Below the pieces are notes generated by a model. The model was not told the origin of the DNA, made no database searches, and was given only the letters and a program-made list of their open reading frames with translations. A stretch of 64,000 nt of DNA from an uncultured Sorangium sp. (GTDB taxonomy: Bacteria; Myxococcota_A; Polyangia; Polyangiales; Polyangiaceae), in NCBI GenBank assembly GCA_966250485.1, contig CBINHN010000004.1:99726-163725 (forward strand), written 5' to 3'. Below are positions 1 to 53,849 of this stretch, in pieces; the stretch's first letter is position 1; every line of letters begins with the position of its first letter. A program made the position numbers and the translations under genes.

Positions 1-900
1 CTCCTCCAGCAGCTCGTCCACCTGTCCGCTGTGTGACGCAACGTCCACCTTCACCAATCGGCAAAATATCCCCTCCTCCTCCAATCGTCCCTTCAGCTCC
101 TGTATCGCTTCACTCTCGCCCGATACCACCGTCGATCGCCGGCTGTTCGAGACTCCAATCGACACCGCTCCACCGTACTCCTTCAACCGCTCGCACAGCT
201 CCTCCGTCGTCTGCTCCACCACCGCCATGCTCCCTCGACCGCTCACTCGCTTCAGCAAGCGGCTCCTCACGCAGATCACTCGCGCACCATCCTCCAAACT
301 CAACTTCCCGCTCACCACTGCAGCCGCCACTTCCCCCATGCTGTGGCCAACTACACCTTCCGGCTCCACTCCATAGCTCCGCCAAACCTCCGTCAGGCTC
401 ACTCCCAGACCGAACAACACCGGCTGGATGACGTCGATACCCTCCCACTTCCCTCTCCTCAGCTCCTCACTCAGCGACCACTCCACGTACGGCCTAAACG
501 CCGCTTCACAACGCTCGATCGCCTCCCGAAATACTCCCTCTCTCTCGTACAACGTCCGCCCCATCCCGCCCCATTGCGACCCTTGTCCAGGGTACACGAA
601 CACCAACTTCCCGCTCTCCCCACTCTCCTCTCCTGCTCCTCCCTCTCGCCAACTCACTAGCTTCCCAAGCAGCTCCTCCCCCCTAAAGCCTACTACCGCC
701 TTCCGCTTCTCGTGCTGCGTCCGCCGTCGCGCCGACGTGTAACATACGTCCCTCACCTCTCGCTCGCTCAACCCTCCCCTCAACAGCTCCTCATAACACT
801 TCCCTAGCTCTCGCAGCGCTCCCTCGCTACGACCAGACATCAACAAGATCTGCGCTCTCCCTATCCGATCCTCTCCCTCAACACTCTCCTCAGGCGCCTC
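1..900. repeat. Copy A of a 900-bp or longer near-perfect direct repeat (KS-AT linker plus AT domain); partner 5529-6428
   Basis: The offset is 5528. Four pairs of track ORFs give identical translations (33..431 = 5561..5959; 110..448 = 5638..5976; 343..660 = 5871..6188; 428..742 = 5956..6270). By eye I found one mismatch (about 856 t vs 6384 a, Arg vs Ser). Identity stops at 900/6428. The left end is cut by the window edge. Confidence 0.93.
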
Positions 901-35100: not shown

Positions 35101-37592
35101 TGCCCGCGCCGCAGCGACGGCAACCAATCCAGCCCTGCGCTGCCGAGCGCCCGTTGACCCAGGCTCGTCAGCACCGGCTGCGGACCGAGCTCGATGAATG
35201 CGTTGCAGCCCAGCTCCTTCAGCGTCGCCAGCCCCGCTCCGAATCGCACCGTCTCCCGAGCCTGCCGCCGCCAGTACTTCCCGTCCGGCGCGTCTCCCTT
35301 CACGCGACCGCTCACGTTCGAGACCAGCGCCAGCCGCGGCGCCCGCGACTCCACCCCACCACACGCTCGCTCGAACTCGTCCAGTATCTCGTCCAGCGCC
35401 GCCGAATGGAACGCATGCGACGTCTTCACCTTCCGCGTCTTCAAACCTCGCTCCGCGCAGCGCTCACCAAGCAGCCCGAGCGCAGCCTCCGGTCCCGAGT
35501 ACACCCACTCCCCTCCCCCGTTCTCCGCTGCCACGCTCAGCCCCCATTCCTCCACGCACAGCTCCCTCACTTCCTCCTCTTCCCCGAACACCGCCAGCAT
35601 CCCGCCGCCGCTCTTCGCTCGCTGCATCAGCCTCCCTCGCTCACTCACCAGCCGCATCGCCGCTTCCGGCTCCAAGCACCCAGCAACCGTCGCCGCAACG
35701 TATTCACCCACGCTGTGCCCGAGCACCGCCGCCGGCTCTACTCCCCACGACTGCCATAACTTGCTCAGCGCGTACCCGATCGCGAACAACGCCGGCTGCG
35801 CGTGCTCCGTACGCTCTAGCTCCTCCTCTCCTCCTTCGCCGTTCATCACTCGCCACAGCGCTCCACCGTCTCCTAGCTCCCCCAAGCACCGCTCCAGCTC
35901 CCGACGAAAAACTCCCTCCGCTTCGTACAGCTCACGCCCCATCCTCACGTACTGCGATCCCTGTCCCGTGCACAAAAATCCGACCTTCAGCGCCGAACCG
36001 CTGTTAGGCGGCGCGCTCACGGCGCTCTCGCTCGTCAGCCAGCGCGTGAGCTCATCGCTCGCGTGCTCGCGCGAGGAGGCCACAATGGAGGCGCGGAATG
36101 CAAAACGGGCGCGGCTCACGTTCGCCGTCCAACACACATCGCTGAGCGGCGGCGCCTCCGGGTCGCGCAAGAAGCTGGCGTACCGGCTGACCAGCTCTGT
36201 CAACGCCGTTCGAGAGCGCGCAGAGAGCGTCAGAATCTCGAACGGCCGCGCGGCGGGCGCAGCCGGCAGCGCTGGACGCGGCGCTTCCTCCAGAACCAAG
36301 TGAGCGTTGGTCCCGCCGATGCCAAACGCGCTCACGCCGGCGCGGCGCGGCGCGCGCGTGCGCGGCCAGGGCCGCAGCGCGTCGACCACGAAGAACGGGC
36401 TGTCTTCGAAGCGGATGCGCGCGCCGGCGGTCTTGAAATGCAGCGTCGGAGGCAGCTGCTCGTGCTCGAGCGCGAGCACGACCTTGATCAAGCTGGCGAT
36501 ACCCGCGGCGGCATCGAGGTGACCGATGTTGCTCTTGACGGATCCAATGCCACAGAACTGTTGCCGCGAGCTCGCGCCGAACGCACGCGAGAGCGCCGCG
36601 ATTTCGATCGGATCCCCAACCGGCGTACCGGTCCCGTGCGCCTCGACGTAGCTCACGGACTCCGGCTCCACGCCCGCCAACGCTTGCGCTTGAGCGATGA
36701 CCTCGAGCTGTCCGTCTGGGCTCGGCGCCGTGTAGCCGGCCTTCGCGGCGCCGTCATTGTTCACGGCCACGCCGCGAATCACAGCGCGAATGTCGTCGCC
36801 GTCGCGCAGCGCGTCTGCGAGACGCTTCAGCACCACCACGCCCGCGCCGTTCCCGAGCACGGTGCCCGCCGCGTGCTCGTCGAACGGCCGGCAGTGACCA
36901 TCGCCGGACAAGATCATGCCGTCCTGGAACAGGTACCCGGCGCGATGCGGAAACCCGATGGCGACGCCGCCCGCCAACGCGGCATCGCACTGATAGGCGA
37001 GGAGCGCTTGGCAAGCGGTCGCCACTGCGACGAGCGACGTGGAACACGCGGTCTGCACGGTGAGACTCGGGCCACGCAGATCGAGCTTGTAAGAGACGCG
37101 CGTCGCCAAGAAATCCTTGTCGTTGGCGACGAACGCTTGATACGACGCCGCGCCGCCGAGCTCGAAGCCCAAACGCGGCACGACGTTGTTGAGCAAGTAG
37201 CTGTTCAGGCCCGCTCCCGCGTACACGCCGACGGAGCTCGGCTGCCGGCTGGGAAAATAGCCAGCGTCCTCCAGAGCCTCCCAGGCGCACTCGAGGAAGA
37301 CGCGCTGCTGCGGATCGAGCAGCTCCGCCTCGCGCGGACCGAAGCCGAAGAATGCTGCGTCGAAGCACTCGCAGTCGGCCAGCACCCCCTTGGCCTTGAC
37401 GTAATTCGGGCGTGATATCAGCTCCGCGTCCAGGCCGCTGGCGAGCAGCTCGGTGTCCGTGAGCCGCGCGATGGATTCGACGCCGTCGCGCAGGTTGTTC
37501 CAGTAATCCCGCAAGTTCCGCGCGCCGGGGAAGCGGCCGGCCATGCCGACGATCGCGATGCTACCGAGCTCGCCTTCAGCGTCCATCTTCAT
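32130..37592 (-). CDS. Type I PKS, one module: KS(hybrid/NRPS-accepting type)-AT(malonyl-type)-DH-KR-ACP
   Basis: Track ORF, ATG at 37592. Only 10 residues precede the KS (MKMDAEGELGSIAIVGMAGRFPGARNLRDYWNNLRDGVESI). Motifs: KS VQTACSTS, EAHGTGT, NIGHLDAAAG; AT GHSVGE plus KTSHAFHS, identical to the AT at 17327-18286; DH LADHRYFGRITMPAVGY, VEFGPRF, LCEACLQ (Glu where Asp is expected); [16 protein letters not shown]; ACP LGLDSLMAVE. Approximate nt spans: KS 36288-37562, AT 35034-35993, DH 34053-34910, KR 32793-33335, ACP 32298-32525. Confidence 0.95.
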   Translation of the reverse strand: MKMDAEGELGSIAIVGMAGRFPGARNLRDYWNNLRDGVESIARLTDTELLASGLDAELISRPNYVKAKGVLADCECFDAAFFGFGPREAELLDPQQRVFLECAWEALEDAGYFPSRQPSSVGVYAGAGLNSYLLNNVVPRLGFELGGAASYQAFVANDKDFLATRVSYKLDLRGPSLTVQTACSTSLVAVATACQALLAYQCDAALAGGVAIGFPHRAGYLFQDGMILSGDGHCRPFDEHAAGTVLGNGAGVVVLKRLADALRDGDDIRAVIRGVAVNNDGAAKAGYTAPSPDGQLEVIAQAQALAGVEPESVSYVEAHGTGTPVGDPIEIAALSRAFGASSRQQFCGIGSVKSNIGHLDAAAGIASLIKVVLALEHEQLPPTLHFKTAGARIRFEDSPFFVVDALRPWPRTRAPRRAGVSAFGIGGTNAHLVLEEAPRPALPAAPAARPFEILTLSARSRTALTELVSRYASFLRDPEAPPLSDVCWTANVSRARFAFRASIVASSREHASDELTRWLTSESAVSAPPNSGSALKVGFLCTGQGSQYVRMGRELYEAEGVFRRELERCLGELGDGGALWRVMNGEGGEEELERTEHAQPALFAIGYALSKLWQSWGVEPAAVLGHSVGEYVAATVAGCLEPEAAMRLVSERGRLMQRAKSGGGMLAVFGEEEEVRELCVEEWGLSVAAENGGGEWVYSGPEAALGLLGERCAERGLKTRKVKTSHAFHSAALDEILDEFERACGGVESRAPRLALVSNVSGRVKGDAPDGKYWRRQARETVRFGAGLATLKELGCNAFIELGPQPVLTSLGQRALGSAGLDWLPSLRRGHSDCRQLFQSLGALFVRGAELDWRAVSGGNGRRRSSLPSYPFERTRHFLEPVARREHQAATPSAGQRLLGTRLDLALEETVYEARYRGDELELLADHRYFGRITMPAVGYLALMLAAAEGVFPGNAAELIDITFLRPLTLADDEERVVQTVVSVAAGGGAAIRVASRAPEEPSFTVHATCSARHVSGVGRAGPSFASSGAQRTITRAEFYGRLRQSEVEFGPRFQWIDRLHIADGQSGVELAPARDFRPSAEELLPGLCEACLQALSAAANPDFMDEGAVDIRVPLAIERFWFRRGAAGPYRAHARVQAGSPASGAGFSGDAELVDGDGLLAAELSGVRFQRVNRETLQTRSVVHGGLRHELHWEPEASATSTRPSWGTTLVLCRAPANALVAELEARAGRAILVTLGSSFAALGPGQYRTRAQADDILRVLEESSASAPIERVLYLHASALENAAVGREERGDYEEPGLAELLACGQALARYSGGPTPRLWLVTRSAQAVSAEEQPSPGPAALWGLARGLGVEHPELFVSSVDLDMTLDRVGSKLLLDSLVEGQASSEVSLRNGARHTLRLRRAQPVRASGTLALDPSATYLITGGLGGVGSNLARFLVERGARRLCLIGRRANEAAKAELAGLAELGVNVRVEAIDVSDEGRLLPLLESLKRDGNLRGVFHAAGVLDDGVLLQQSAERLNAVVRPKLVGAVLLDCHTRDVPLDYFVSFSSLSAIIGAPAQAGYAAANAALEAVTHARRARGLPALCVAFGPWRATGMAANGGERARRFRDERGISELEPREALLELEALLWGDGGHAVVARVDWNRMASSSPTARSLLFALADERPTANPATRSAEFLERWRAASARERRELLGEQLREQAARVIGLAPSAPIDPRQPLGELGLDSLMAVELRNALGALLGRSLPASLLFDYPSLAGLQDYLIKILDTESSPARAPAPAEPESPPEPLPSDISDLSQGELEALLDQKLASIDALLETS
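35034..35993. repeat. Copy B of the 960-bp perfect AT repeat; partner 17327-18286
   Basis: Evidence as for copy A. It corresponds to codons 534-853 of the PKS at 32130..37592. Confidence 0.93.
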
Positions 37593-37607: not shown

Positions 37608-38399
37608 TCATGTGCCGAGCGCGGGCGCGCTGGTGACTTCCAGGCCAGCGAAGGCAACGTCGTCGAGCAGGGCGCGCACGACCGGACGAGGGCGCTCCAA
37701 CGCAAAGAAATGGCCGCCGGCGAAGGAGCGCAACGAGCTCGCTTCGCGCGCTTCCTGCTGCCACGGCAGTACCAGATCGAGCGGCGCCTCTTCGTCCTCC
37801 TGTCCGCGGAAGATGGATAGCGGCACATCGAGCGGCGGACGCCGAACGTACTCGTACGTTTCGATCACTTTGAAGTCAGCGCGCAGCACGCCTATGAACA
37901 GCGCGCGCAGCTCGGGGTCATCGAGCAACACGCTGGGAGTGCCGCCGAAGCGGCGAATCCTGGCCTCGACTTGCTCGTCCGGTAAGAGGTGCAACACGCG
38001 GCCGCCGACACCAGTGGAGGGTGCTCGACGGCCCGAGACGACCAACCGCAGCGGCGGGCGCTGTCCCTCGCCGCGGATGCGGTGAGCGAGCTCGAACGCG
38101 AGCAGCGCGCCGAAGCTGTGGCCGAACAGCACATAAGGCGTCTCGAGCAGCGGCGCGATGTTCGTGTACACGGCTTCGACGAGCGGCATCATGGACTCGA
38201 TGGCGGGCTCGTTCAGACGCTCGCCGCGCCCCGGCAACTGCAACGCGCAAGCGTCCACCCCTGCGGGTAGGTGCTCGGCCCAGGATCGGAACGAGGTGGC
38301 GCTCCCCCCAGCGTGCGGAAGTAAGAATAGGCGAAGCTTGGCGTCGTTCTCCGGCCGCAACCGGAAGAGCCACTTCTTCGCCACCGTCGAGCTCATCAT
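37608..38399 (-). CDS. Type II (discrete, editing-type) thioesterase, alpha/beta hydrolase
   Basis: Track ORF 37608..38813. I trimmed the start to the ATG at 38399 (MMSSTVAKKWLFRLRPENDAKLRLFLLPHAGGSATSFRSW), which overlaps the TGA of the upstream PKS-NRPS (ATGA). The product is 263 aa. Motifs: PHAGG, nucleophile elbow GHSFG, C-terminal GGHFF. The longer N-terminal extension in the track lies inside the upstream gene. Confidence 0.88.
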   Translation of the reverse strand: MMSSTVAKKWLFRLRPENDAKLRLFLLPHAGGSATSFRSWAEHLPAGVDACALQLPGRGERLNEPAIESMMPLVEAVYTNIAPLLETPYVLFGHSFGALLAFELAHRIRGEGQRPPLRLVVSGRRAPSTGVGGRVLHLLPDEQVEARIRRFGGTPSVLLDDPELRALFIGVLRADFKVIETYEYVRRPPLDVPLSIFRGQEDEEAPLDLVLPWQQEAREASSLRSFAGGHFFALERPRPVVRALLDDVAFAGLEVTSAPALGT

Positions 38400-41300
38400 G
38401 ACTGCCTCCTTGAAGCGGACGCCAGCGCCGCCCGCTGTGCCTCGGCGCGTCGCCGCGCCTGCGCCGCGCGTTCGTTGCGCGCCGGCTCGGCGAGCAACCG
38501 AGCCAAGCCCTGCACGGTCGTATGTTGGTACATGTCCACCAGGGGAAGCTCCTTGCCGCTCCGCTCCGCGATCAGCGCGCGAGCCCGAGCAATCAGGAAC
38601 GAGCTGCCACCCACGTCGAAGAAGTTGGAGTGCAGGTCGAATGAGCGCCGGCCGAGGAGCTCCGCCCAAACGTCGGCCACGAGCCGTTCCGCGTCGGAGC
38701 GAGGCTCGCGCTCGACGTCGCTGGTACGTCCAGCGTGGCTGGGGGCCGGCAAGGCCCGACGATCGATCTTGTTGTTCGGCGTGCGCGGTAGCGCTGGCAA
38801 CTGCTCGAACCAACCCGGGATCATGTAATCGGGCAGCGAGCGGCGAAGGTGGCTGCGCAGCGCTGGCTCGTCCACCGCAACATCGCTCACGACGTAGGCG
38901 ACCAGCTCCGGAACGCCGCCGGGCCGCTCGTGCAGCACGGTGACACTCTCCCGCAACGCGGGATACGTGCCGAGCGCCGCGTCAATTTCTCCGAGCTCCA
39001 CGCGATAGCCGCGAATCTTGACCTGCGTGTCCGCGCGACCGAGAAACTCCAGCACGCCGTCGCCGCGCAGCCGCACGCGGTCCCCTGTGCGATACGCGCG
39101 CTCGCCAGCCAGCCAGTGCGGGCGGACGAAGCGCTCCCGCGTCAGCTCCGGGCGACCATGATAGCCCTCCGCGACGCCGTCCCCAGCGATGAGCAGCTCC
39201 CCGATTGCGCCCAACGGAACCGGCCGCAGCTCAGCGTCGACGACGTAGACGCGGGTATTCGCGACGGGTCGACCGATCGGGATGGACTGCCCGAGATCGC
39301 TTCGGGTCAGCGGGTGCACCAGCGACCAGATGGTGGTCTCCGTGGGACCGTACAGGTTGAAGACACGACCGCGGTCGAGCAGCGCGGCCGCGAGCTCCGG
39401 CGGGAGAGCTTCTCCGCCACACAAGATCTTGAAGTCGTGGTGGCCGCGCCAGCCTGCATCGACCAGCATGCGGAACGTGATGGGAGTGGCCTGCAGCACC
39501 GTCGCGCGAGTGTCGGCGAGGAGCCCGGCGAGCGCGACGCCGTCGAGCGTCGTGGCCCGTGACGCCAGCACCAGCGTCGCACCGACGATCAACGGTAAGA
39601 ACAACTCCAACGCCGCAATATCGAAGGACACGGTCGTGACCGCCACCCACACGTCCGCGTGCGTGGCGCCGGGCGTCGCCTTCATCGACCACAACAGGTT
39701 GGTCAGCGAGCGGTGCGCGACGCGCACGCCCTTCGGGCGCCCCGTGGAGCCCGAAGTGTAGAGCAAGTATGCGCCAGCCTCGAAATCGATCGCCTCCGGC
39801 TCGTCGCAGCGCGCGCAGTCCTCGTAGAGCTGCTCCATTTGCAGCACTTGTCCGCGGAAACCAGCGAATTGATCCGCGAGCGCGCCGCTCGTAAGCGCGA
39901 ATGCTGCGCCGGAGTCCTGTAAGATGAAGGCGCTGCGTTCTTGCGGGTAAATGGGATCCAGCGGGACATATACGGCGCCCGCGCGCAGCAGCGCGAGCAA
40001 CGTCACCACGAGATCGCGCGAGCGCTCGAGCAGAACGCCCACGTGAGCGCCGCTAGCGATCCCACGCGCGCGCAGCTGAGCGGACACATTACTCACGGCT
40101 GCCGCGAGCTCGCGGTAGCTCATCGCGCCTTGCGCATCGACGAGGGCCGTCTTCGAGGCGAACTCCTGCGCGGCGGCAGAGAACAGCTGGGGCACCGTGG
40201 CGCGCGGATACTCCGCCTGCGTCGCGTTGAGCTCCCGCTCCGCAGCAGCCCAATCGGTCGCGCCGATCACCGGCAAGGCCGCGAGCTCTACCTCCGCTTG
40301 CGCGGCGATGGCTTCGAGCAGCGTGAAGTACGTGCCTACCAGCCGCTCCACGCTGCGCGCGTCGAACAAGTCGCTGTTGTACTGAGCCAGCGCCGAGTAC
40401 CGCCCTGACGCTTCCGCCAGCACCATCAGCTCGAGGTCGAATCGCGCCTTGTACTGCGGCACCTCGATCGATTCGAGCTCCAGCGGTCCCAGCCGCAGCC
40501 TACCCCCCGCGCGGCCGTCGGTGAACGGGTGCAGCGCGGGCATGCTGCTCGCCTGCTGCAACACGAACACGGTTTGGAAAAGAGGCGAGCGGCTCGCGTC
40601 GCGCGGCAGGCGCAGGGCGTCGATCATGAGCGGCAGCGGATAGTCCGCGTGCTCCAGCGCCCCCAGCATCGCCTCGCGCACGCGCGCGAGCAGCGCCCGA
40701 AACGAAGCGATGTCGCTGAACTGCACCCGAATCGGAAGCGGGTTCACCAGGTCGCCCACGGTGCGTTCGAACCGGCCCTGCGAGCGCCCCGACGAATACG
40801 TCCCGACGACGATGTCGGATTGTGCCGAGTGACGGTGCAGGGCCGCCAAGAAGCCGGCCAGCAACACGGTGTGCAAGGTCGTCGCCGACTCCTGTGCCAG
40901 TTGCTGCAGCGCCGCCACGAGCTCCGCCGGCAGCGGACGAAAATGCGTGTCGCCGCGGTAGGTCTGGAGCGCCGGACGCGGACGGTCGCTCGCCAGATCG
41001 AGCGGCACCGTGCCGGCCAGCGTAGCGACCCAGTACTCCCGTGACCGCGCTCCTTCGGCGCTGCTGAGCCAGCGTTGCTGCCATGCCACGAACTCGGGGT
41101 AGTCCGCGGTGACCGCGGGCAGCCGGGGCGGCTCGCCCGTGGCGGCCGCGGCGTAGGCGTGAGCAAGCTCTTCCAGCACGACCACTAGCGACGCAAAGTC
41201 GATGATGATGTGGTGCAGAGTGATAGAAATGACGTCGCCAGTACTCGCGCCGCTGAACACGCTCACGCGCAACGGAGGCTCACGCAGCGAGAACGGCTCG

Positions 41301-44300
41301 TGAAACTCGCGCGCCAGCGCCTCTCGCAGCGCGGACTCGCTCCAGCCCTGCGCGTCAGTGAGCCGCCACTCGAAGGTCCAGCTCGACCTGCCAACGGCGC
41401 TCATTTCGCCGCCCTCCACGACGAACGCGCTGTGCAACGCCGAGTGCCGCGCCGTGACCACCCCTACCGCGGCGCGGAACGCCGTGACATCGAGCTTGCC
41501 GCACACGCGCGCGGTAAACCCGTAGTGGTAAGCGGCGCTCGCGGGCGCGAGCTCGTGAATGAACGCCAGCGCTCGTTGATTCCACGACAGCGCGCCGTGC
41601 GGCACAGGCGCCGCCTCGGCGAGCGCCGGCTCCGACGCCGCTCGCGCGTCACGCTGCTCGTCGCGTTCCATGCTCTCCAGCAGCCAGGCGCCGAGCTGCA
41701 CGACGGTTGGTCCTTGCAGCAATTTGACCGTGGAAATTGCCATCGCAGCCTCGCGCTCCAGTCGACGCCGCAGCTCCACGGCCATCAGCGAATCGAGCCC
41801 GAGACGGTTGAGCGGCACGTCCAGGGGGAGCTCGGAGCGCCGCTGCCCGAGCACCTGCGCCACCATGTCCGCAAGCCGCTCACGCGCCAAATCCGCCCGC
41901 TGTTCTGGCGCGGCAGCGAGCACCGCCGCGCGGCACTCGAGGCCGCCAGGCGCGGGCCTCGGCTCGGCCGCTCGCAGTCGCGTCAAGCGCAGCCCTTGCA
42001 CGCGCAGAACGGCGCGCCCGGCGGCGTCGAACGCCGAGAGCTGCACGCAAGCGACGTCTCCTTCGATCTGCGCAGTGGCGACGACGCGCTCGCTGCCGCT
42101 CAGCGCCGCATCGATGGCCAGCTCCTCGATGCCGCTCGCCAACCACACCGCGTCGGAGTCCGGCAGCGCGTGCGCTGAGACCTGAAAACAGGCGTCGAGG
42201 AGCGCGGGATGAACGACGAAGCGAGAAGCCTGCGCGCGCGTCTCCTCACAGGGCGCGAGCTCGCCGATCGATGTCCCAGGCGCGCCCCAGACGCGCGCCA
42301 CGGCGCGGTAAGCGCCCGTCAGCTCTAGGCCGCGCGCGGCGAGCCGCGCATAGTGCTCGGCCTCGCTGATTTCCTGCATCGCGTCGCTCACGGCGTCCAC
42401 TGGACACGCTGGGGTCGCCCGCGCACCGCGAGCCAGCGACAGCTCGGCGTGCAATGTCCACTCCGCGTCGGGCTCGGGCAGCGCGCTGTACACCTGCACC
42501 TGCGCTCGTTGCCCGCCGGCGCGGAACAGCACCTGCACCCGCCGTGGCTCGTCTCCCAACACCAACGGCGATGGCAGGCTCAGGCCGCGGATGGTACTCA
42601 CCTCCCCGAGCAGCTCGCGTCCCGCGGCCAGAGCCATCTCGACGTACGCGGAGCTCGAGAGCAGCACGTCGCCCTGGAAGCGATGCCCCTCCAGAAACGC
42701 GGGTGAGGTGCTCGTGAGCAAGGACTCGAACACCTGGACCGGCTGCGCGCCCGCGAGCGGCACGCGCTCGCCGAGCAGGCTATCGGAGGTGAGCTGGCGC
42801 GCAGACTTCGAGGTTTGCGCGCCTTGCGGCCAGAACGACCGCCCCTCGAACGGATACGCCGGCAAGCTCACCACGCGGCTCTCAGCGGGCACGAGCGCGC
42901 CCCAATCGGCGTCGTGCCCGCTCGTGTACAGCGCCGCCAGGGTACGGCGCATGGACACGCGCTCGTCCTGCTCGCGCACCAGAGAGCCGAACGTGACCAC
43001 GTCGCGGCCGCTCTGCGCAAAGCCCTGGCGCAAGGAGGTGAGCGTGATGGGGTGCGGGCTAATCTCCAGAAACGACGTGGCACCCTCGTCGCAAGCGCGC
43101 GAGATCGCGGTCCAGAAGCGTACCGGGTCGACCACGTTTCGAATCCAGTACTCCGTGTCCAGTCGCTCGGGCGCGATGCGCTCTGCCATCACCGCCGAGT
43201 AGTAGGGCACGGCTTGCGAACGCGGAGTGATCCCGGCGAGCGCCTCGCGCATCTCCGGAATGACAGCGCGAAGCTGCGGCGAGTGACCGGCGACGTCCAC
43301 GTTCACGTAGCGGCAGAACACGCCGCGTTCGCGCAGCGGCACCAAGAACGCTTCGATGAGCGCGCGATCTCCCGAGAGCACGCACGACTCCGGGCCGCTC
43401 TCCACCGCGACGGCCACGCGATCGGCGAATGACGCGACCGCCTCGCGCGCCGCTGCGAACGGCAGATCCACGACCGCCATGGCCGTGTCGCCCGGCGCAC
43501 GCCGCATGATCGCGCTGCGCAAGCTGATGACGCGCGCCGCGTCCTCGAGCGACAACGCGCCCGCGACGTGCGCCGCCGCCACCTCTCCCATGCTGTGGCC
43601 CACGACGGCTCGCGGCAGCACGCCCCAGGCGCGCCACAGCGCCGCGCACGCCACCTGCAGGGAGAAGATCGCGGGCTGTACGAAATCTAGCTTGTCGTTG
43701 CGGAAGCCGGGCCCCGGCCGCGCGAGCTCATCGAGCAAGGACCAGCCGACGTGCGGGCGCAGCGCTCGATCGCAGGCGAGCAGCGCTTCCCGACTGGCGG
43801 GCTCGAGGAGCAGCTGCTGACCCATGCCCTTCCATTGCGAGCCGTGACCGGAGAACACGAAGACGGCCTGGCGGCTGTCGCCTGCTTGGCCGACGTGCAA
43901 CGCATGGCTAGCTTCGCCGGCCAGGTGCGCCGCGAGCTCTCGCGCGGCTTCCGCGGCGGAGCTCGCGCAAAGCGCTAAACGATGGCGGTAGTGACGCCGG
44001 CGCGCGCTCGCAGTGTAACAAACGTCCGACCACGGCGAGCGCTCGCAAGCGAGCTCGTGAACGAAGCGCTCCGCCGTCGTCCGCAGAGCTTGCGGGCTAG
44101 CGGCAGACAAAGTGAGAACGCAAGCTCCTTCCTCGCCCTCGGCCGTCAGCGCCCCTGGTGCCGGCGCCGCGCCGGCTAGCACCACGTGCGCGTTGCCGCC
44201 GGATAGCCCGTAGGAGCTCACTCCTGCGATGCGACGCTGCCCCGGCCAGTCCTCGGTCCGGGTCTGAACCCGCACTGGCAACGTGTCCCAGGGCACGGCG

Positions 44301-45439
44301 CGGTTGGGGGTCGAGAAATGCAAACTCGCGGGCAACACACCGTGATGCAGCGCTAGCGCCACCTTCATCAAACCGGCGATCCCGGACGCGGCCTCGGTGT
44401 GGCCGATGTTGGTCTTGACGCTGCCGAGCGCGCACCGCCGAGCGCTTCCCGTCGCGGCGATGGCCTCGCCCACCGCCTGAATTTCCAGCGGATCGCCCAC
44501 GCGCGTGGCGGCGCCGTGCACCTCGACGTACTCGACGTCCCCCGCCGCTACCTGGGCGTCCTCGAACGCTCGCGCCAGGAGCTCACGATAGGCGTCCACG
44601 CTCGGTGTCATCAGCGTCGCGCTGCGCGCGCCGTTGGAGCTCAGCGCCGAACCCCGCACGACGGCATAGATGCGATCGCGATCCGCGAGCGCATCGGCTA
44701 GTGGCTTGAGCACGACCACGCCAGCGCCTTCGCTGCGCACGAAGCCGTCCGCTGAATCGTCCGCGAATTTGCAGCGACCGTCGGCGGCCAAAATGCCGCC
44801 CTGGCACAGCGAGATGAAGCCGCGCGGACGCAGCAGCAGATTGACGCCGGCAGCGAGCGCCAACCGGCACTCCCCCGAACGGAGACTCTGCAACGCGAGG
44901 TGCACCGCGCTGAGCGACGAAGCGCACGCCGCATCCAGCGTGAGGCAGGGCCCCTCGAAGCCGAATGCGAACGCCACCCTGCCGGCCAGGAAGCTGCGGT
45001 CGCCGCCGGTCGTCGCGTAGACGTCGAGCAAATCGGGCGTGAGCAGCACCTCGGCGTAGTCGTTGGCGTGCGCGCCCACGAAGACGCCCGTACGGCGAGC
45101 CTCCGTCGTGCTGCCGCGCCAGCCTGCGTCGTCCAGGGCTTCCCACGTCAGCTGCAGCAGCAGCCGCTGCTGCGGGTCCATGCGCAGCGCCTCCCGCGGG
45201 GACACGTTGAACAGCGCGTTGTCGAACGAGGCGATGTCGTCGATGAAACCGCCGCGACGCGTGTAGATTTTTCCGCTCACGCCCGGACGCCGATCGAACA
45301 GCGCGTCCGCGTCGAAGCGCGAGCGCGGGATCTCGCCCACCGTTTCGCGGCCTTCCGCGAGGAGCGACCAGAACTCTGCCAGGCTGTTCGCCCCCGGCAG
45401 GCGACACGCCATACCCACGATCGCGACCGCGCGTTCCAT
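38396..45439 (-). CDS. Hybrid PKS-NRPS megasynthase: KS-AT-DH(degenerate)-ACP-C-A(Gly)-PCP; probable first assembly-line protein
   Basis: Track ORF, 2347 aa, ATG at 45439. The KS starts at residue 3 (MERAVAIVGMACRLPGA) with no N-terminal docking region. Domain motifs and coordinates are given in the seven domain features that follow. Confidence 0.95.
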   Translation of the reverse strand: MERAVAIVGMACRLPGANSLAEFWSLLAEGRETVGEIPRSRFDADALFDRRPGVSGKIYTRRGGFIDDIASFDNALFNVSPREALRMDPQQRLLLQLTWEALDDAGWRGSTTEARRTGVFVGAHANDYAEVLLTPDLLDVYATTGGDRSFLAGRVAFAFGFEGPCLTLDAACASSLSAVHLALQSLRSGECRLALAAGVNLLLRPRGFISLCQGGILAADGRCKFADDSADGFVRSEGAGVVVLKPLADALADRDRIYAVVRGSALSSNGARSATLMTPSVDAYRELLARAFEDAQVAAGDVEYVEVHGAATRVGDPLEIQAVGEAIAATGSARRCALGSVKTNIGHTEAASGIAGLMKVALALHHGVLPASLHFSTPNRAVPWDTLPVRVQTRTEDWPGQRRIAGVSSYGLSGGNAHVVLAGAAPAPGALTAEGEEGACVLTLSAASPQALRTTAERFVHELACERSPWSDVCYTASARRRHYRHRLALCASSAAEAARELAAHLAGEASHALHVGQAGDSRQAVFVFSGHGSQWKGMGQQLLLEPASREALLACDRALRPHVGWSLLDELARPGPGFRNDKLDFVQPAIFSLQVACAALWRAWGVLPRAVVGHSMGEVAAAHVAGALSLEDAARVISLRSAIMRRAPGDTAMAVVDLPFAAAREAVASFADRVAVAVESGPESCVLSGDRALIEAFLVPLRERGVFCRYVNVDVAGHSPQLRAVIPEMREALAGITPRSQAVPYYSAVMAERIAPERLDTEYWIRNVVDPVRFWTAISRACDEGATSFLEISPHPITLTSLRQGFAQSGRDVVTFGSLVREQDERVSMRRTLAALYTSGHDADWGALVPAESRVVSLPAYPFEGRSFWPQGAQTSKSARQLTSDSLLGERVPLAGAQPVQVFESLLTSTSPAFLEGHRFQGDVLLSSSAYVEMALAAGRELLGEVSTIRGLSLPSPLVLGDEPRRVQVLFRAGGQRAQVQVYSALPEPDAEWTLHAELSLARGARATPACPVDAVSDAMQEISEAEHYARLAARGLELTGAYRAVARVWGAPGTSIGELAPCEETRAQASRFVVHPALLDACFQVSAHALPDSDAVWLASGIEELAIDAALSGSERVVATAQIEGDVACVQLSAFDAAGRAVLRVQGLRLTRLRAAEPRPAPGGLECRAAVLAAAPEQRADLARERLADMVAQVLGQRRSELPLDVPLNRLGLDSLMAVELRRRLEREAAMAISTVKLLQGPTVVQLGAWLLESMERDEQRDARAASEPALAEAAPVPHGALSWNQRALAFIHELAPASAAYHYGFTARVCGKLDVTAFRAAVGVVTARHSALHSAFVVEGGEMSAVGRSSWTFEWRLTDAQGWSESALREALAREFHEPFSLREPPLRVSVFSGASTGDVISITLHHIIIDFASLVVVLEELAHAYAAAATGEPPRLPAVTADYPEFVAWQQRWLSSAEGARSREYWVATLAGTVPLDLASDRPRPALQTYRGDTHFRPLPAELVAALQQLAQESATTLHTVLLAGFLAALHRHSAQSDIVVGTYSSGRSQGRFERTVGDLVNPLPIRVQFSDIASFRALLARVREAMLGALEHADYPLPLMIDALRLPRDASRSPLFQTVFVLQQASSMPALHPFTDGRAGGRLRLGPLELESIEVPQYKARFDLELMVLAEASGRYSALAQYNSDLFDARSVERLVGTYFTLLEAIAAQAEVELAALPVIGATDWAAAERELNATQAEYPRATVPQLFSAAAQEFASKTALVDAQGAMSYRELAAAVSNVSAQLRARGIASGAHVGVLLERSRDLVVTLLALLRAGAVYVPLDPIYPQERSAFILQDSGAAFALTSGALADQFAGFRGQVLQMEQLYEDCARCDEPEAIDFEAGAYLLYTSGSTGRPKGVRVAHRSLTNLLWSMKATPGATHADVWVAVTTVSFDIAALELFLPLIVGATLVLASRATTLDGVALAGLLADTRATVLQATPITFRMLVDAGWRGHHDFKILCGGEALPPELAAALLDRGRVFNLYGPTETTIWSLVHPLTRSDLGQSIPIGRPVANTRVYVVDAELRPVPLGAIGELLIAGDGVAEGYHGRPELTRERFVRPHWLAGERAYRTGDRVRLRGDGVLEFLGRADTQVKIRGYRVELGEIDAALGTYPALRESVTVLHERPGGVPELVAYVVSDVAVDEPALRSHLRRSLPDYMIPGWFEQLPALPRTPNNKIDRRALPAPSHAGRTSDVEREPRSDAERLVADVWAELLGRRSFDLHSNFFDVGGSSFLIARARALIAERSGKELPLVDMYQHTTVQGLARLLAEPARNERAAQARRRAEAQRAALASASRRQS
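38495..38707 (-). other. PCP (thiolation) domain
   Basis: FFDVGGSSFLIARA (a GGxS core) at residues about 2273-2286, followed by a basic Arg/Ala-rich tail (ERAAQARRRAEAQRAALASASRRQS). Confidence 0.8.
38744..40207 (-). other. NRPS adenylation (A) domain, predicted glycine-specific
   Basis: Core motifs: LLYTSGSTGRPKG, FDIAALE, NLYGPTETT, GELLIAGDGVAEGY, YRTGDRVR, GRADTQVKIRGYRVELGEI, PNNKIDR. The 10-residue code read against GrsA positions is D-I-L-Q-L-G-L-I-W-K. Confidence 0.85.
40280..41593 (-). other. NRPS condensation (C) domain
   Basis: HHIIIDFAS (an HHxxxD core without the usual following Gly) at residues 1409-1417. The domain length and its position between ACP and A fit a C domain. Confidence 0.8.
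41675..41902 (-). other. ACP domain
   Basis: LGLDSLMAVELRRRLE, Ser at residue 1217 (about nt 41789-41791). Confidence 0.85.
41960..42787 (-). other. DH-like domain, partly degenerate, in a module without KR
   Basis: EGHRFQGDVLLSSSAY (His retained; Pro of HxxxGxxxxP is Ser), LELTGAYRAV in place of GYxYGPxF, HPALLDACFQ (Asp retained); residues about 885-1160. Confidence 0.6.
42920..43867 (-). other. AT domain with non-canonical specificity motif (VAGH)
   Basis: FVFSGHGSQW (His where Gln is usual), GHSMGE, VNVDVAGHSPQ; residues about 525-840. Confidence 0.8.
44165..45433 (-). other. KS domain of the hybrid protein (catalytic Cys/His/His retained)
   Basis: LDAACASSLSAVHLA (Cys retained, so not a KSQ/KSY), EVHGAATRVGDPLE, NIGHTEAASG; residues about 3-425. 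Confidence 0.85.
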
Positions 45440-45450
45440 CAGCCGTTCCT

Positions 45451-46071
45451 TCAGTAGTTGCTCGCGCTGCGCGCGACGCTGGCCTTGGCCTCAGCGGCCA
45501 GGTTCAAGAAGTTGCGCGCGATGAGCTTGCCCGACGGGGTACCGATGGACTCTGGGTGAAACTGCACGCCGAACATCGGCCAGTGCCGGTGACGGAAGGC
45601 CATGATGGTGCCGTCCCAAGTCTTCGCTGTAACCTCGAGCTCCGACGGGAGGCTCCCCGGATCCGCGATCAAGGAGTGATAGCGCATCGCCTCGAAGGCG
45701 CGCGGGACGTCCGCGAACAGCGGGTGACCATCGTGAAAGACGTAGCTCGTCTTGCCGTGCATGGTCTCCGCGGCTCGCACCACCTTGCCGCCCAGGACGT
45801 GCGCGATGCCTTGGTGACCCAAGCACACGCCCAAGATGGGAGTCGTGGCGCCCAGGAAGCGGATTACGTCGGCGCAGACGCCGAAGTAAGCCGCGTCGTC
45901 GGGGCGGCCCGGGCCCGGCGAAATGACGATGAAATCCGGATCGAGCTGGCGCACGCGCTCGAGTGAAATCGCGTCGTTGCGTACCACCGCGGGCGCGGCC
46001 GACAGGCTGCCGAACAGCTGATAGAGGTTGTGCGTGAAGGAGTCGTAGTTGTCGAGGATGAGACCGCTCAT
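45451..46071 (-). CDS. pabA: Glutamine amidotransferase, aminodeoxychorismate/anthranilate synthase component II (PabA-type)
   Basis: Track ORF 45451..46374. I trimmed the start to the ATG at 46071 (MSGLILDNYDSFTHNLYQL), which overlaps the pabB stop (ATGA). The product is 206 aa. Motifs: class-I GATase GVCLGHQ (nucleophile Cys) and FHPES. The stop lies 11 nt before the PKS-NRPS start. Confidence 0.88.
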   Translation of the reverse strand: MSGLILDNYDSFTHNLYQLFGSLSAAPAVVRNDAISLERVRQLDPDFIVISPGPGRPDDAAYFGVCADVIRFLGATTPILGVCLGHQGIAHVLGGKVVRAAETMHGKTSYVFHDGHPLFADVPRAFEAMRYHSLIADPGSLPSELEVTAKTWDGTIMAFRHRHWPMFGVQFHPESIGTPSGKLIARNFLNLAAEAKASVARSASNY

Positions 46072-47627
46072 GTTTCGGCTCCCAGACTGATGGCGTTGCG
46101 CAGCGCTCGCTCTAGGGCTGCCGCCTTGTCCAGCGTCTCGCGATACTCGCCGAGCGGGCTCGAGTCCGCGACCACGGCGCCGCCGACGCTGAAGTAGCAG
46201 CGCCCGTCTTTCACGAGGAAGCTGCGAATGACGATGTTCAGGTCGAGCAGGCCACGATCGTCCAGATAGCCGACCGCGCCGGAGTAGATGCCGCGCTTGT
46301 ACGGCTCGAGCGCGTCGATGATCTTCATGGCCTCGATCTTCGGCGCGCCCGTCATCGAGCCGCCTGGGAAGCAAGCCCGGATCAAATCGAATGCGTCGCG
46401 ATCGGCCCGCAGCTTGCCGCGGATCGTCGAGACCATCTGAAATACCGTCGCGTACTGCTCGATGACCATGAGCTCCGGCACGTGGACCGTATCGATCTCA
46501 CAGACGCGGCCGAGATCATTGCGCACCAAGTCGACGATCATCACGTTCTCGGCGCGATCCTTGACCGATCGGAACAGGTCCGCTCGCAGCTCCGCGTCCT
46601 GCTCCGGCGTAGCGCCGCGCGGACGCGTTCCCTTGATCGGCCGGCTCTCCGCGACGCGCTCCCCGTCCAGACGAATGAAGCGCTCCGGCGACGAGGACAC
46701 CAGCTGCCCCCACGGGAAATTGAGGTAGCACGCGAACGGAGCCGGGTTGATGCGCCGAAGCTCGCCGTAGAGTAGCCAGGGGTCACCGCCGTAGCGCGCC
46801 TCACGCCGATGCGTGGTGCAGACTTCGAAGATGTCGCCAGCGCGGATATGACGCTTGGCCTGCTCCACCGTCTCGATGTAGCTCGCCTCGCTCGCGTGAC
46901 CTTCGATGTCCCCGGCCGTACCCGAGGCTGCACGCGCTTCCCGGCTCACCGTGGATCGCGCCTCGAGCCCCGCGATCTGCGTGAGCACGCTCTGCCGGCG
47001 CATTTCGATCCGTCGTCGCGCGCTGGCTTCATCGGCCGCGAACGCGCTGACGCACAGGTACGAGCGGCTGCGGAGGTGGTCATGGCACCACACCACGTCA
47101 GCCATCATCATGGTCACGTCCGGCAGGTTGAGATCGTCGCGACCGAGATTCGGCAGCCGCTCGATCAGGTAGCCCGCCTCGTACGCGAAGTAGCCGACCA
47201 TGCCCGCGCAGAACGGCGCCGGCGCGTCCGTCCACGCGGGGGCGCGCCGCTCGTCCGCCGCACGCCGTAGAGCTTCGAACGGCTCGCAGCTGAGCTCCGC
47301 GCGCAGCGGCCGCTCGTAACGCGCGCCGCTCTCGTCGCGCAGCGTGATCCACGCTGCGTCCGCTGGCTCGCCCGGTGAAGCGCCGGGCCTGCGCCTGGCC
47401 TCGAAGACGCGCTCCGGCTCACCGATCAAGAACGAGTAGCGGCCGAGCGACTCGGCGTCCCGCGCGCTATCGAGCAGCGCAGCGTACGGCTCGGAGCGAT
47501 AGAGCTCGAAGTAACTCCAAAACTCACGCTGCAGCTTCAGCTCGAAGACGGCGTCGACACGCAGCCGACCGTTGGGAGCCTGAGTCGTTCGCTGGATGGT
47601 CATAGGCGAGCTCCGGGCAAACGTCAC
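46068..47627 (-). CDS. pabB: Chorismate-utilising enzyme, aminodeoxychorismate synthase component I (PabB-type)
   Basis: Track ORF, 519 aa. Motifs: SSPERFIRL, RPIKGTRPRG (Lys as in E. coli PabB PIKGT; TrpE has PIAGT), DRAENVMIVDLVRND, FPGGSMTGAPK. The start at 47627 is a GTG by my reading; an in-frame ATG at 47603 (MTIQR) is an alternative. Confidence 0.85.
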   Translation of the reverse strand: MTFARSSPMTIQRTTQAPNGRLRVDAVFELKLQREFWSYFELYRSEPYAALLDSARDAESLGRYSFLIGEPERVFEARRRPGASPGEPADAAWITLRDESGARYERPLRAELSCEPFEALRRAADERRAPAWTDAPAPFCAGMVGYFAYEAGYLIERLPNLGRDDLNLPDVTMMMADVVWCHDHLRSRSYLCVSAFAADEASARRRIEMRRQSVLTQIAGLEARSTVSREARAASGTAGDIEGHASEASYIETVEQAKRHIRAGDIFEVCTTHRREARYGGDPWLLYGELRRINPAPFACYLNFPWGQLVSSSPERFIRLDGERVAESRPIKGTRPRGATPEQDAELRADLFRSVKDRAENVMIVDLVRNDLGRVCEIDTVHVPELMVIEQYATVFQMVSTIRGKLRADRDAFDLIRACFPGGSMTGAPKIEAMKIIDALEPYKRGIYSGAVGYLDDRGLLDLNIVIRSFLVKDGRCYFSVGGAVVADSSPLGEYRETLDKAAALERALRNAISLGAET

Positions 47628-47631
47628 AGCC

Positions 47632-49059
47632 TCAAGTTCGTAGGTCGAAGAAGCGCTTGGCCTTGAATTCGGTGCGCGGAAGCGAGCCGAAGGGAACGAC
47701 CACCACCGTCACCTCGATGCCAAGCGCGCCTTTGAGCCGACGGGCCACCTGCTGACCGACCTCCGCGTAGTTACTCTTGGGAATTTCCGAGCGCGGTTCC
47801 ACGATCGCGCGCAAACGATCCATGTCGTTCTCTCGCACGAGCTCGACCTTGAAATCGTCTCCCAGCTCCTCCTGGCTGCGGATCGCGTCCTCGATGGCCG
47901 AGGGATAGAACGTCAGACCGCGCACCTTGATCAGCTGATCGCTGCGACCATGCAAGCCGCCAATGACTCGCGCGTGCGTGCGCCCACAGCCGCAGCGCTC
48001 CCGCGTGATGCTGGCCCAATCACCCATCACGTAACGAAGCACGGGCTGCGCCTCGCTGAATAAATTGCTGACCACGAGCACGCCGCGAACGCCGTCCTCG
48101 ACGGGTCGCCACGTCTCCGGGTGGACCACCTCCGCGTAGTAAGCGTCCTCCGTCAGGTGCGTGTCGACGCCGTCCTGCCGCTCGACTTGGTACTCGCAGG
48201 TGTAGCCCAGCGGAGACATCGCAACTTCGGTGCAACCGAAGTCGTCGTGCACCTTGGCTCCCCACAGCTGTTCGATGCGCGCCTTCGTTGCGGGCACGCA
48301 CGCGCCCGGCTCGCCCGCCGCCACGATCCGGCGAATCGACGAGGCCGCGGGATCCTGTCCCAGCTCCTGCATGACGCGCGCGAGGTAGCAGGCATAAGAT
48401 GGGGTGCACAACAGCAGCGTCGGCTTGTAATTTTCGATCATCGCGATGCGGCGCTCGGAGTTGCTGCCGCCGCCGGGGATCACTGGGACGCCCATCAGGT
48501 TGAGCGCGTAGTGCAGGCCCCAAAAGGCCACCGAGGTGCCATAGCCGAAGCAGTTGATGGCCACGTCACGGCCGCGCCGTACGCCCATGGCGTAGAGAGA
48601 GCGCGCGCCGTGCCAACTCCAGAGCTCGCGATCGAAATTCGTGTGGCGGAACGCGCGCGGCGTCTTCGCCGTGGTGCCGGACGTGGAAAACATCATCCAC
48701 CCGTCGTTCAGCCAAGCATCTTGCGTCAGCGGCGAGAAGGTGCCCCACGGCGGCGAGCGCTGCTGATCGATGAGCCACTCTTCGCGATGCGTGAGCGGCA
48801 CCTTCGCGAGATCAGCGATCCCGCGGACGCTATCCGGACCGAGGCCGGACATTTCGAATTTGTTTCGATAGAACGCGCTGCTGTCCCACAGATAACGATA
48901 CGCAAGCGCCACTCGCTCGCCCTGGAGCCGGCGGAGCTCGGCGGGGCTCGCGCACTCGTAACGCGGAGCCCAATAGCGCTCGTCGGCAGGCTCACCATAC
49001 GGCTTCGCGTGCTCGCGCCCGAAATCAAGCCACCTCTTTTTGCTCGACTCCATCTGCAA
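47632..49059 (-). CDS. Phenylacetate-CoA ligase (PaaK)/F390-synthetase family adenylate-forming enzyme; putative aryl-acid (PABA?) activating ligase
   Basis: Track ORF, 475 aa. Family-typical features: N-terminal YWAPRYECASPAELRRLQGERV, STSGTTAKTPRAF (the P-loop-like AMP-binding motif of the PaaK family), LLCTPSYA, VAAGEPG. The track start at 49059 reads as TTG by eye; the ATG two codons in (49053, MESSKK) is the likelier start. Confidence 0.75.
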   Translation of the reverse strand: MQMESSKKRWLDFGREHAKPYGEPADERYWAPRYECASPAELRRLQGERVALAYRYLWDSSAFYRNKFEMSGLGPDSVRGIADLAKVPLTHREEWLIDQQRSPPWGTFSPLTQDAWLNDGWMMFSTSGTTAKTPRAFRHTNFDRELWSWHGARSLYAMGVRRGRDVAINCFGYGTSVAFWGLHYALNLMGVPVIPGGGSNSERRIAMIENYKPTLLLCTPSYACYLARVMQELGQDPAASSIRRIVAAGEPGACVPATKARIEQLWGAKVHDDFGCTEVAMSPLGYTCEYQVERQDGVDTHLTEDAYYAEVVHPETWRPVEDGVRGVLVVSNLFSEAQPVLRYVMGDWASITRERCGCGRTHARVIGGLHGRSDQLIKVRGLTFYPSAIEDAIRSQEELGDDFKVELVRENDMDRLRAIVEPRSEIPKSNYAEVGQQVARRLKGALGIEVTVVVVPFGSLPRTEFKAKRFFDLRT

Positions 49060-49081: not shown

Positions 49082-49993
49082 TCACATCGCGCCGGCTCGG
49101 CTGACCAAATCCATGAATGCTGCCGACAAACGTCGAAACACGGGCCCTGGCGCGCGGGCGGCGTACGCCCCTGCGACGCTTCGAATCGGCAGTAGCTCCA
49201 TCACCGTGCTCGTAAAAAACAGCTCGTCGGCCGCTAACATCGTCGGCACGTCGAGCGCGGTCTCGCGGGCCGTCACGCCGAGCTCTCGCGCGAGGCGAAG
49301 CACGACAGCGCGCGTCACTCCCGGTAATGCTCCGCACTCGAGCGCGGGCGTCACGACGTCTCCGCCGATCACTGCGAACAAATTGGACACGGTTCCGGAC
49401 ACGACTTCACCAGTCGGCGAAAGTTGGATTCCCTCACTGAACCCCTGCTCCTCGAGCTCACGACGCGCCAAAATTGTCGGCAAATAGTTGATTGATTTGA
49501 TGCTCGTATCCAGGCAGCACGCCGGAACACGACGCTTCGTCAGCAACGTCGAAGCAATTCCGTCGCTGTACGAGCCTGCAGAATAGCGGGGCAGTGGACG
49601 AGCGACGATCGACAGGGTCGGCGCGCCGGCGTGCGAAGTGGCGATGCCCGCACCGCCGACGCCACGCGTGAGAGTCACGCGCACGTAAACCTCGGGCTCA
49701 TTGGCGCGTTCCACGCATTCCTGCAGGGCCCGCAGCAACGCGTCACTGCTTAGAGGCAGCGGAATACCGGCCACCGCCGCCGAGTGAAGCAGGCGTTGAA
49801 CGTGCTCCGGCGCTGCAAACAGCCGCCCGCCGTAGCTGCGTAGCGTATCGAACACTCCATCGCCCAGTAAATGCCCGCGATCCAGGACGCTGATGCGCGC
49901 GGCGCTTGGCTCGACGAAGACACCATCGAGGTAAATCTGGCCGAGCACAGCGCCCGCAGGCGGAGCCCTCGAGCGGAGAGAGGCCGCCGTCAT
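49082..49993 (-). CDS. pabC: Class IV (fold type IV) PLP aminotransferase family; by context 4-amino-4-deoxychorismate lyase (PabC-type)
   Basis: Track ORF 49082..50266. I trimmed the start to the ATG at 49993 (MTAASLRSRAPPAGAVLGQIYLDG), which is preceded by GGGAG. Motifs: VLDRGHLLGDGVFDT, SIKSINYL (PLP Lys context), GTVSNLF, GALPGVTR. The family alone cannot separate ADC lyase from BCAT/DAAT; I assign it from linkage to pabA and pabB. Confidence 0.7.
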   Translation of the reverse strand: MTAASLRSRAPPAGAVLGQIYLDGVFVEPSAARISVLDRGHLLGDGVFDTLRSYGGRLFAAPEHVQRLLHSAAVAGIPLPLSSDALLRALQECVERANEPEVYVRVTLTRGVGGAGIATSHAGAPTLSIVARPLPRYSAGSYSDGIASTLLTKRRVPACCLDTSIKSINYLPTILARRELEEQGFSEGIQLSPTGEVVSGTVSNLFAVIGGDVVTPALECGALPGVTRAVVLRLARELGVTARETALDVPTMLAADELFFTSTVMELLPIRSVAGAYAARAPGPVFRRLSAAFMDLVSRAGAM

Positions 49994-53655: not shown

Positions 53656-53849
53656 CACGTGGCGCCCATTTTCACACGGTTTGCGCGACGCCCACAACAA
53701 AAAGCCTCGCGCGCTGCGCGCCACTCGGCGAAGGTGGCGGACTTCGGTGCCCATAGTCGCGCGCGGGATTTGGTGCGCGAGCCGCACACACACCCCGCGC
53801 GAGCGACGCACCCGCGCGCGCTGGCGGCCAATCGCGGGGTCAAAAGGCC

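Follow-up and report, generated by a model that had tools for sequence, protein, structure and literature searches.

Candicidin/FR-008-type polyene polyketide synthases (PKSs) start their chains from p-aminobenzoate (PABA), which is made by PabAB and PabC encoded in the cluster itself. The aureothin PKS is said to lack a loading domain altogether, as He & Hertweck reportedly described in 2003. Together with the neoaureothin PKS, it uses CoA-activated p-nitrobenzoate (PMC6718629). Here we analyse a 64,000-nucleotide stretch of contig CBINHN010000004.1 from an uncultured Sorangium sp. (hereafter the window), which carries a hybrid PKS and nonribosomal peptide synthetase (NRPS) cluster. Our subject is gene A (38396-45439, minus strand), a 2347-residue protein with the domain order KS-AT-DH-ACP-C-A(Gly)-PCP that forms the first module of the assembly line. 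On balance, we favour a reading in which p-aminobenzoyl-CoA primes the ketosynthase (KS) of gene A directly, the chain is extended once, and the resulting β-keto chain is joined to glycine and passed on to gene B. A preliminary description of the locus had called KS-first priming uncommon and mechanistically interesting. Uncommon it is, but the aureothin and neoaureothin PKSs provide a direct precedent (PMC6718629).

Gene A belongs to an operon on the minus strand that runs in the order PabC-like, ligase, PabB, PabA, A, thioesterase, B, with gaps of at most 28 nt or 4-nt overlaps between genes. The first gene (49082-49993) encodes a protein of the class IV aminotransferase fold (Pfam Aminotran_4, E 1e-55), which is probably an aminodeoxychorismate (ADC) lyase. 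It remains under every NCBIfam cutoff, its matches being branched-chain aminotransferase and ADC-lyase models. The assignment of ADC synthase component I, PabB (46068-47603; Pfam Chorismate_bind), is supported by a score above the cutoff of the NCBIfam pabB model TIGR00553 (358.8 bits, cutoff 328.4) and below that of trpE_most (384.5 bits, cutoff 517.7). The glutamine amidotransferase of PabA/TrpG type (45451-46071; Pfam GATase, E 1.6e-52), whose stop codon lies 11 nt before the gene A ATG, passes TIGR00566 trpG_papA. By family assignment, then, PabB, the amidotransferase and the ADC-lyase-like protein are a p-aminobenzoate pathway.

The remaining gene of the set (47632-49053; Pfam AMP-binding and AMP-binding_C_2) encodes a PaaK-family aryl-CoA ligase, for which we propose the role of p-aminobenzoate-CoA ligase. 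In NCBIfam the PaaK models score under their cutoffs, and FlxY and BagE/FevW also match; among solved structures, it comes closest to those of phenylacetate-CoA ligases and 2-hydroxyisobutyryl-CoA synthetase, both of them authentic CoA ligases. At the level of protein families, the operon of gene A thereby provides both the aryl acid and a separate CoA ligase, the combination that marks the aureothin type. It had been suggested in the preliminary description that an aryl-CoA made by the adjacent ligase primes the KS. This now appears likely and can be narrowed down: since the ligase sits in a conserved cassette with PabB, PabA and the PabC-like protein, its substrate is most likely the product of that cassette, and the aryl-CoA most likely p-aminobenzoyl-CoA. 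No AurF-type N-oxygenase was detected among the window open reading frames (ORFs) scanned, so the starter is presumably an amine and not a nitro compound.

The N-terminus of gene A leaves little space for anything but the KS. Translation begins at an ATG with AAGGAA 7 nt 5′ of it, and the first stop in the same frame is reached 17 codons upstream (45491-45493) without an intervening ATG, GTG or TTG, which excludes extra N-terminal domains. The earlier judgement that a true start further upstream is unlikely therefore holds, although not for the reason given: the TGA that had been noted 11 nt upstream is present, but it lies in another frame and belongs to the amidotransferase gene. Domain annotation, proposed at that stage as a check, was carried out with Pfam and placed the KS at residues 3-375, the acyltransferase (AT) at 526-842, the dehydratase (DH) at 888-1161 (both halves), the acyl carrier protein (ACP) at 1187-1253, the condensation (C) domain at 1284-1721 and the adenylation (A) domain at 1754-2224; the peptidyl carrier protein (PCP) was located with a carrier hidden Markov model (HMM). 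With the KS starting at residue 3, the 2347-residue protein indeed has no docking helix, loading AT or ACP, CoA-ligase or GNAT domain. The proteins of genes C, D, E, F, G and H open with a docking helix of about 30 residues before the KS, whereas in gene A the KS comes first (MERAVAIVGMACRLPG), which supports its position as the first module. An HMM trained on the ACP and PCP domains of the window itself, run over all six frames of the 64 kb, found no free-standing carrier protein.

The KS (44315-45433; assigned by Pfam and motif) retains the catalytic residues Cys172 (DAACASS), His308 (EVHGAAT) and His347 (NIGH). The presence of the active-site cysteine (DAAC172ASS) rules out the decarboxylating KSQ class, in agreement with the preliminary description, and, judged by its motifs, this KS is competent for condensation. 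It shares 44-51% identity with the other modular KS domains of the window and 57% with that of the Chondromyces apiculatus orthologue introduced below; its best single-domain matches in the PDB are CurL, PikA1, MAS and DEBS. We read it as an ordinary modular cis-AT KS. The outlying top PDB match, 7zma (635 bits), is an artefact arising from two KS domains in one chain. The first histidine motif reads EVHGAAT (residues 306-312; 44516-44524) in place of the usual HGTGT, which is the form seen in the C. apiculatus orthologue.

The AT (42914-43864; Pfam and motif) bears the marks of an extender-type domain, namely Ser616 of GHSxG (GHS616MGE) and the carboxylate-binding Arg641. It is nearest to methylmalonyl-type ATs, scoring 243 bits with DEBS AT3 versus 139 with CurL and 117 with the hydroxymalonyl-ACP-specific ZmaA. 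Its specificity motif is VAGH (residues 716-719), as in both orthologues, whereas HAFH or VASH stands at this position in the rest of the line. The extender selected by this domain is, on these similarities, probably an α-substituted malonyl-CoA. In the literature searched, VAGH occurs once, in the unassigned loading AT of Kid13.

Neither a ketoreductase (KR) nor any other short-chain dehydrogenase/reductase was found in gene A at E<=0.01 (Pfam), and the gap between the DH and the ACP (41681-41881; Ser1217; Pfam and motif) measures only about 26 residues. The C-terminal half of the protein is, as far as domains and code allow it to be read, a glycine-specific NRPS elongation module. It consists of a C domain (40277-41590; Pfam, with the motif HHIIID at residue 1409), an A domain (38768-40180; Pfam and anchors) and a PCP (residues ~2244-2324; 38468-38710; carrier HMM, with Ser2280 in the motif GGSS2280). 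The A-domain code, taken at the standard A4-A10 anchors (FDIAAL / VLQATP / ILCGGE / NLYGPTETTIWS / NNK), is DILQLGLIWK. This code confirms the glycine specificity proposed earlier, and it is identical in the C. apiculatus orthologue.

In the course of events that we favour, PabA, PabB and the PabC-like lyase would make p-aminobenzoate from chorismate, the PaaK-family ligase would turn it into p-aminobenzoyl-CoA, and the p-aminobenzoyl thioester would acylate Cys172 of the KS directly, free of any carrier. Once the VAGH-type AT had put an α-substituted malonyl extender on the ACP, a single decarboxylative condensation would yield a 3-(4-aminophenyl)-3-oxo-acyl-S-ACP, and because module 1 has no KR, the β-keto group would be retained. 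That this β-keto acyl-ACP is delivered to the C domain, as had been suggested, is a reasonable inference. The C domain would then couple the chain to glycyl-S-PCP, and the β-ketoacyl-glycyl chain would move to the hybrid-type KS of gene B (32130-37592, minus strand; KS-AT(HAFH)-DH-KR-ACP). The N-terminus of the latter KS (IAIVGMAGRFPGA) lacks a docking helix and is of the type found after NRPS modules, which fits a hand-over from the PCP of gene A. The product of the whole line would probably be a polyene initiated by an aminophenyl β-ketoacyl-glycine unit.

The association between the ligase and PABA genes extends well beyond this locus. Homologues of the ligase (46-77% identity) are found in Stigmatella, Polyangiaceae, Hyalangium, Planctomycetota, Gemmatimonadales and Scalindua. 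Stigmatella erecta, two JGI loci and the majority of 20 genome loci have the ligase, PabB-like and amidotransferase genes side by side, and a class IV aminotransferase gene is often part of the set. Judging from these neighbourhoods, the ligase/PabB/PabA(/PabC) cassette is both conserved and portable. The loci carrying it (L003, L004, L005-L021, L025, L027) are mostly without any PKS. In S. erecta (L027) the cassette adjoins a gene for a KAS III-like protein, as well as those for an SRPBCC protein and a FAAL-ACP, and in the two JGI loci (L003 and L004) it lies beside genes for a free-standing C-like protein and an MMPL transporter. The partners at L003 comprise a C-like protein of 449 residues, a Shikimate_DH+Aminotran_3 fusion and the MMPL transporter. 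KAS III-like and free C-like enzymes typically use acyl-CoA donors, and partners of these kinds fit a CoA thioester as the product of the cassette. PKS proteins adjoin the cassette in two loci. At the distant locus L021, a PKS divergent from the cassette (L021:2-4513, minus strand) has a weak carrier-like start (17.7 bits, below the Pfam cutoff) followed by KS-AT-KR, and the carrier-like region has GVTA at the position of GxDS. The literature searched yielded no description of the cassette or of a PABA-primed myxobacterial PKS.

For gene A itself, two orthologues were found. Among 5.8 billion proteins its sole full-length homologue comes from Chondromyces apiculatus DSM 436, is 45% identical and has the same set of domains. 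The RefSeq form of this homologue, P0305, begins MNLADTRSRADSIAVLGMAVRLPG, has no docking helix and is encoded by the first gene of its operon. It is followed by orthologues of genes B and C whose N-terminus types match those of their window counterparts; the divergent C. apiculatus operon opens with a docking-helix KS, the mark of a mid-line protein. A partial orthologue, P0241, was found in a metagenome-assembled genome of Polyangiaceae and covers AT-DH-ACP-C only; it was the sole additional orthologue to come out of the homologue search with the DH-ACP-C segment. When representatives were searched exhaustively with the same segment, giant NRPSs crowded the ranking because the scores of their many carrier-C repeats add up; an alignment running all the way from DH to C was obtained for the gene A protein and P0241 alone. 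The gene A protein forms an ENA protein cluster with two member sequences from one contig, and a second ENA assembly, reached through gene G, holds the same gene cluster.

Several points weigh against direct priming by p-aminobenzoyl-CoA. Every catalytic step, from the ligase substrate and its CoA product through direct KS acylation and a single round of extension to the fate of the β-keto group, is deduced from sequence. More than 20 kb of the cluster lie beyond the left end of the window and might encode a loading protein or a carrier. In one review, aureothin priming is ascribed to a CoA ligase that works in trans on a loading ACP (PMC5655351), and the cassette-side PKS of the distant locus L021 starts with a weak ACP-like region. 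The HGAAT of the gene A KS departs from HGTGT. The DH, conserved and structurally intact, receives no β-hydroxy substrate from its own module and has no assigned role. Finally, the 10-kb flanks of the C. apiculatus orthologue contain neither PABA nor ligase genes, which means that either the starter differs there or the genes lie elsewhere.

The last of these points speaks for a rival, decarboxylative self-priming, whereby the gene A KS would make a short alkyl starter from its own AT-loaded extender, while p-aminobenzoyl-CoA would be used elsewhere, for example as a late acyl/amine block. Modular PKSs stripped of their loading domains can prime themselves in this way, and the C. apiculatus orthologue, of the same architecture as gene A, lacks PABA and ligase genes over 10 kb to either side. 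That the cassette serves non-PKS partners in other genomes, and hence behaves as a portable supply module, points in the same direction. Here, however, it lies immediately upstream of gene A at a spacing typical of translational coupling, and the readable 74 kb contain no other obvious PABA acceptor, such as a further A domain or a free C domain. We regard self-priming as unlikely.

Priming through a carrier strikes us as rather unlikely too. In this scheme, the ligase would pass p-aminobenzoate to a separate ACP or loading protein, encoded somewhere beyond the window, which would hand it to the KS. We retain it as a rival on account of the review's classification of aureothin as a trans CoA ligase plus loading ACP (PMC5655351) and the ACP-like start at L021; the downstream part of the cluster, moreover, lies beyond the sequence read. 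Yet the 64-kb window has no free carrier, gene A has no element with which to dock one, and the ligase is of PaaK type and closest to true CoA ligases. As for the L021 "ACP", it is below the Pfam cutoff and has GVTA where GxDS would be.

Module 1 also contains a DH (41957-42778; Pfam and motif; His919 and Asp1082). Its features are as the preliminary description had them: catalytic His and Asp (D1082ACFQ) kept, Ser in place of the motif Pro (H919RFQGDVLLS928), a degenerate YGP motif (GLELTGAY for GYxYGP), and no KR. The usual pairing of DH with KR in modular cis-AT modules is thus broken in module 1 and likewise in the two orthologues, so that in three proteins (gene A, P0241 and P0305) a DH is fused straight to an ACP. 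The catalytic His and Asp are present in each of these DHs and the Tyr of YGP in none, and two of the three have Ser for the motif Pro. The ratio of DH to KS identity between gene A and the C. apiculatus orthologue is 0.59, within the range for other module pairs of the window (0.46-0.75), and accelerated decay of the DH is not indicated. Structural modelling, which had also been suggested, gave an AlphaFold model with a complete double-hotdog fold (pLDDT 84.5, pTM 0.86), whose top Foldseek matches are the DH domains of CurF and CurK (TM 0.80-0.87). The earlier proposal that this DH might be a relic did not survive these results: with the catalytic pair and the KR-less layout kept in three orthologues, a normal identity ratio and a full fold, we reject it on conservation grounds, and the DH is probably not a decaying domain. 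Loss of the YGP Tyr settles its activity neither way, since the DHs of genes B, C and E, which have KRs, have lost this residue as well.

The deviations in those KR-bearing modules are EACLQ for DxxxQ together with FGP for YGP in B, FGD in C and LGP in E, and some of these DHs may, on their motifs, be inactive. For module 1, it is quite doubtful that the DH works on a non-canonical substrate, such as a glyceryl unit delivered to its own ACP by an FkbH-family protein or an aryl β-keto/enol intermediate. If it did, the first-module chemistry would be one not yet described for a PABA-primed PKS/NRPS.

The glyceryl variant of this idea had been put forward in the preliminary description with the neighbouring FkbH-like protein in view. 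Its gene is one of two that lie upstream of the operon and diverge from it. An acyl-CoA/ACP dehydrogenase (ACAD; 50307-51461, plus strand) is followed by an FkbH-family protein (51463-52542, plus strand) that passes TIGR01686. The FkbH-family protein would charge the module 1 ACP with a glyceryl unit, which the KR-less DH would dehydrate to (enol)pyruvoyl-S-ACP, as proposed for FkbH-DH loading modules. Chemically the route is attractive, given that glyceryl-S-ACP already bears a β-hydroxyl and would not need a KR; the DH His and Asp kept in three orthologues suit it, and so does a bona fide FkbH-family gene 5 kb away for which the window offers no partner ACP. The genomic context argues otherwise. 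On a sister contig, it is a hemerythrin gene, and not the ACAD/FkbH pair, that stands upstream of the PabC-like gene, and no FkbH gene is found within 10 kb of the C. apiculatus orthologue. FkbH-DH loading goes with fusion or steady association of the two, whereas here FkbH is discrete, divergent and absent from the flanks of two readable related loci. The intact KS and AT of module 1 would, in addition, be left without a role, and the ACAD is not specifically FkbI-like (1r2j ranks only about 19th among its matches). We therefore find the glycerate route distinctly improbable, and the proposed FkbH-derived unit for module 1 is not borne out. Although the order KS-AT-DH-ACP without KR is the architecture of the AviM/CalO5 family, an iterative synthase of this kind, which would build an orsellinate-type aryl acid and then join it to glycine, is hardly credible and was rejected on the similarity of KS and AT to modular cis-AT domains (44-51% KS identity with neighbouring modules; CurL, Pik and DEBS as top PDB matches; an AT of the methylmalonyl-type clade), in a comparison that included no AviM-type reference sequence.

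Direct priming of gene A by p-aminobenzoyl-CoA thus remains our preferred account, and the remainder of the locus can be described around it. The assembly line, a cis-AT PKS/NRPS, has its genes A-G inside the window and continues outside with at least H and I. Directly after gene A comes a free-standing type II thioesterase (37608-38399, minus strand; Pfam Thioesterase, E 3.6e-48), the ATG of which overlaps the gene A stop codon (ATGA); in C. apiculatus (L026), no such gene is present between the orthologues of A and B. After the thioesterase come six single-module PKS genes, B-G, and to the left of the window lie the two-module gene H and then gene I. No chain-releasing domain was found in the readable 74 kb. 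Behind its PCP, gene A ends in a basic, Arg-rich tail of about 25 residues (residues ~2325-2347; 38396-38470), and P0305 likewise has a basic, Arg-rich tail after its PCP. This tail and the docking-less N-terminus of gene B may represent an undescribed mode of PCP-to-KS docking. The AT-coding regions of genes B (35031-35993) and E (17324-18286) are 99.9% identical over 963 nt and the encoded ATs 100% identical, a pattern that suggests recent gene conversion or duplication between modules. In addition, a sequence within gene G repeats the part of gene H with which the window opens.

On the other side of the operon, the ACAD/FkbH pair is possibly part of the cluster. The window offers it neither a partner ACP nor a 3-hydroxyacyl dehydrogenase or an O-methyltransferase. 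A 412-residue ORF convergent with FkbH (52516-53754, minus strand) matches no Pfam family and has a faint TPR-like NCBIfam match. Beyond the pair lie housekeeping genes.

If our reading is correct, it would extend carrier-free aryl-CoA priming of modular PKSs outside the aureothin family. It would also show that a portable four-gene cassette for activated PABA, which occurs in several phyla, can be combined with different acceptor enzymes. Pairs of cassette and KS would then be attractive for engineering aryl-amine starters into polyketides. Module 1, for its part, is one of three known members of a small, uncharacterised family of modules that is marked by a conserved KR-less DH and a VAGH-type AT.

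The relationship of this locus to known systems can be summarized as follows. With FkbH-DH(-KR)-ACP loading systems (bryostatin BryA, FR901464) it shares an FkbH-family enzyme and a DH that would need no preceding KR; here, however, FkbH is discrete and on the opposite strand, the DH is part of a full KS-AT-DH-ACP module, and the link between the two is not conserved in related loci. The AviM and CalO5 orsellinic acid synthases have the same KR-less order KS-AT-DH-ACP, but the KS and AT of gene A resemble modular cis-AT domains, and the module is fused to C-A-PCP and placed in a collinear multi-gene line. In the KAS III-like and C-like loci (L027, L003, L004) the same four-gene cassette stands directly beside a presumed acyl-CoA-using enzyme, the difference being that the acceptor is a small discrete enzyme there and a type I PKS module here. 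Candicidin/FR-008-type systems likewise take PABA from cluster genes as the starter, although through a cis loading didomain (a CoA-ligase-type domain and an ACP), neither part of which is present in gene A. The closest parallel is offered by aureothin and neoaureothin (AurA/NorA, AurE ligase, AurG PABA synthase): a cluster-borne PABA supply, a separate CoA ligase, a first PKS protein that opens with an active KS and no loading domain, and a CoA-activated para-substituted benzoate as the starter, which in the present case would be p-aminobenzoyl-CoA. The two differ in that the ligase here is of the PaaK family and the host a myxobacterium, not Streptomyces. AurA has a KR and iterates, whereas the module described here is KR-less and continues into an NRPS module for glycine; it is further set apart by the KR-less DH and the VAGH-type AT. 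The priming logic is, accordingly, of the already known though rare aureothin type, and the present cluster is an orphan that represents a variant of it, with a KR-less DH, a VAGH AT and a glycine module.

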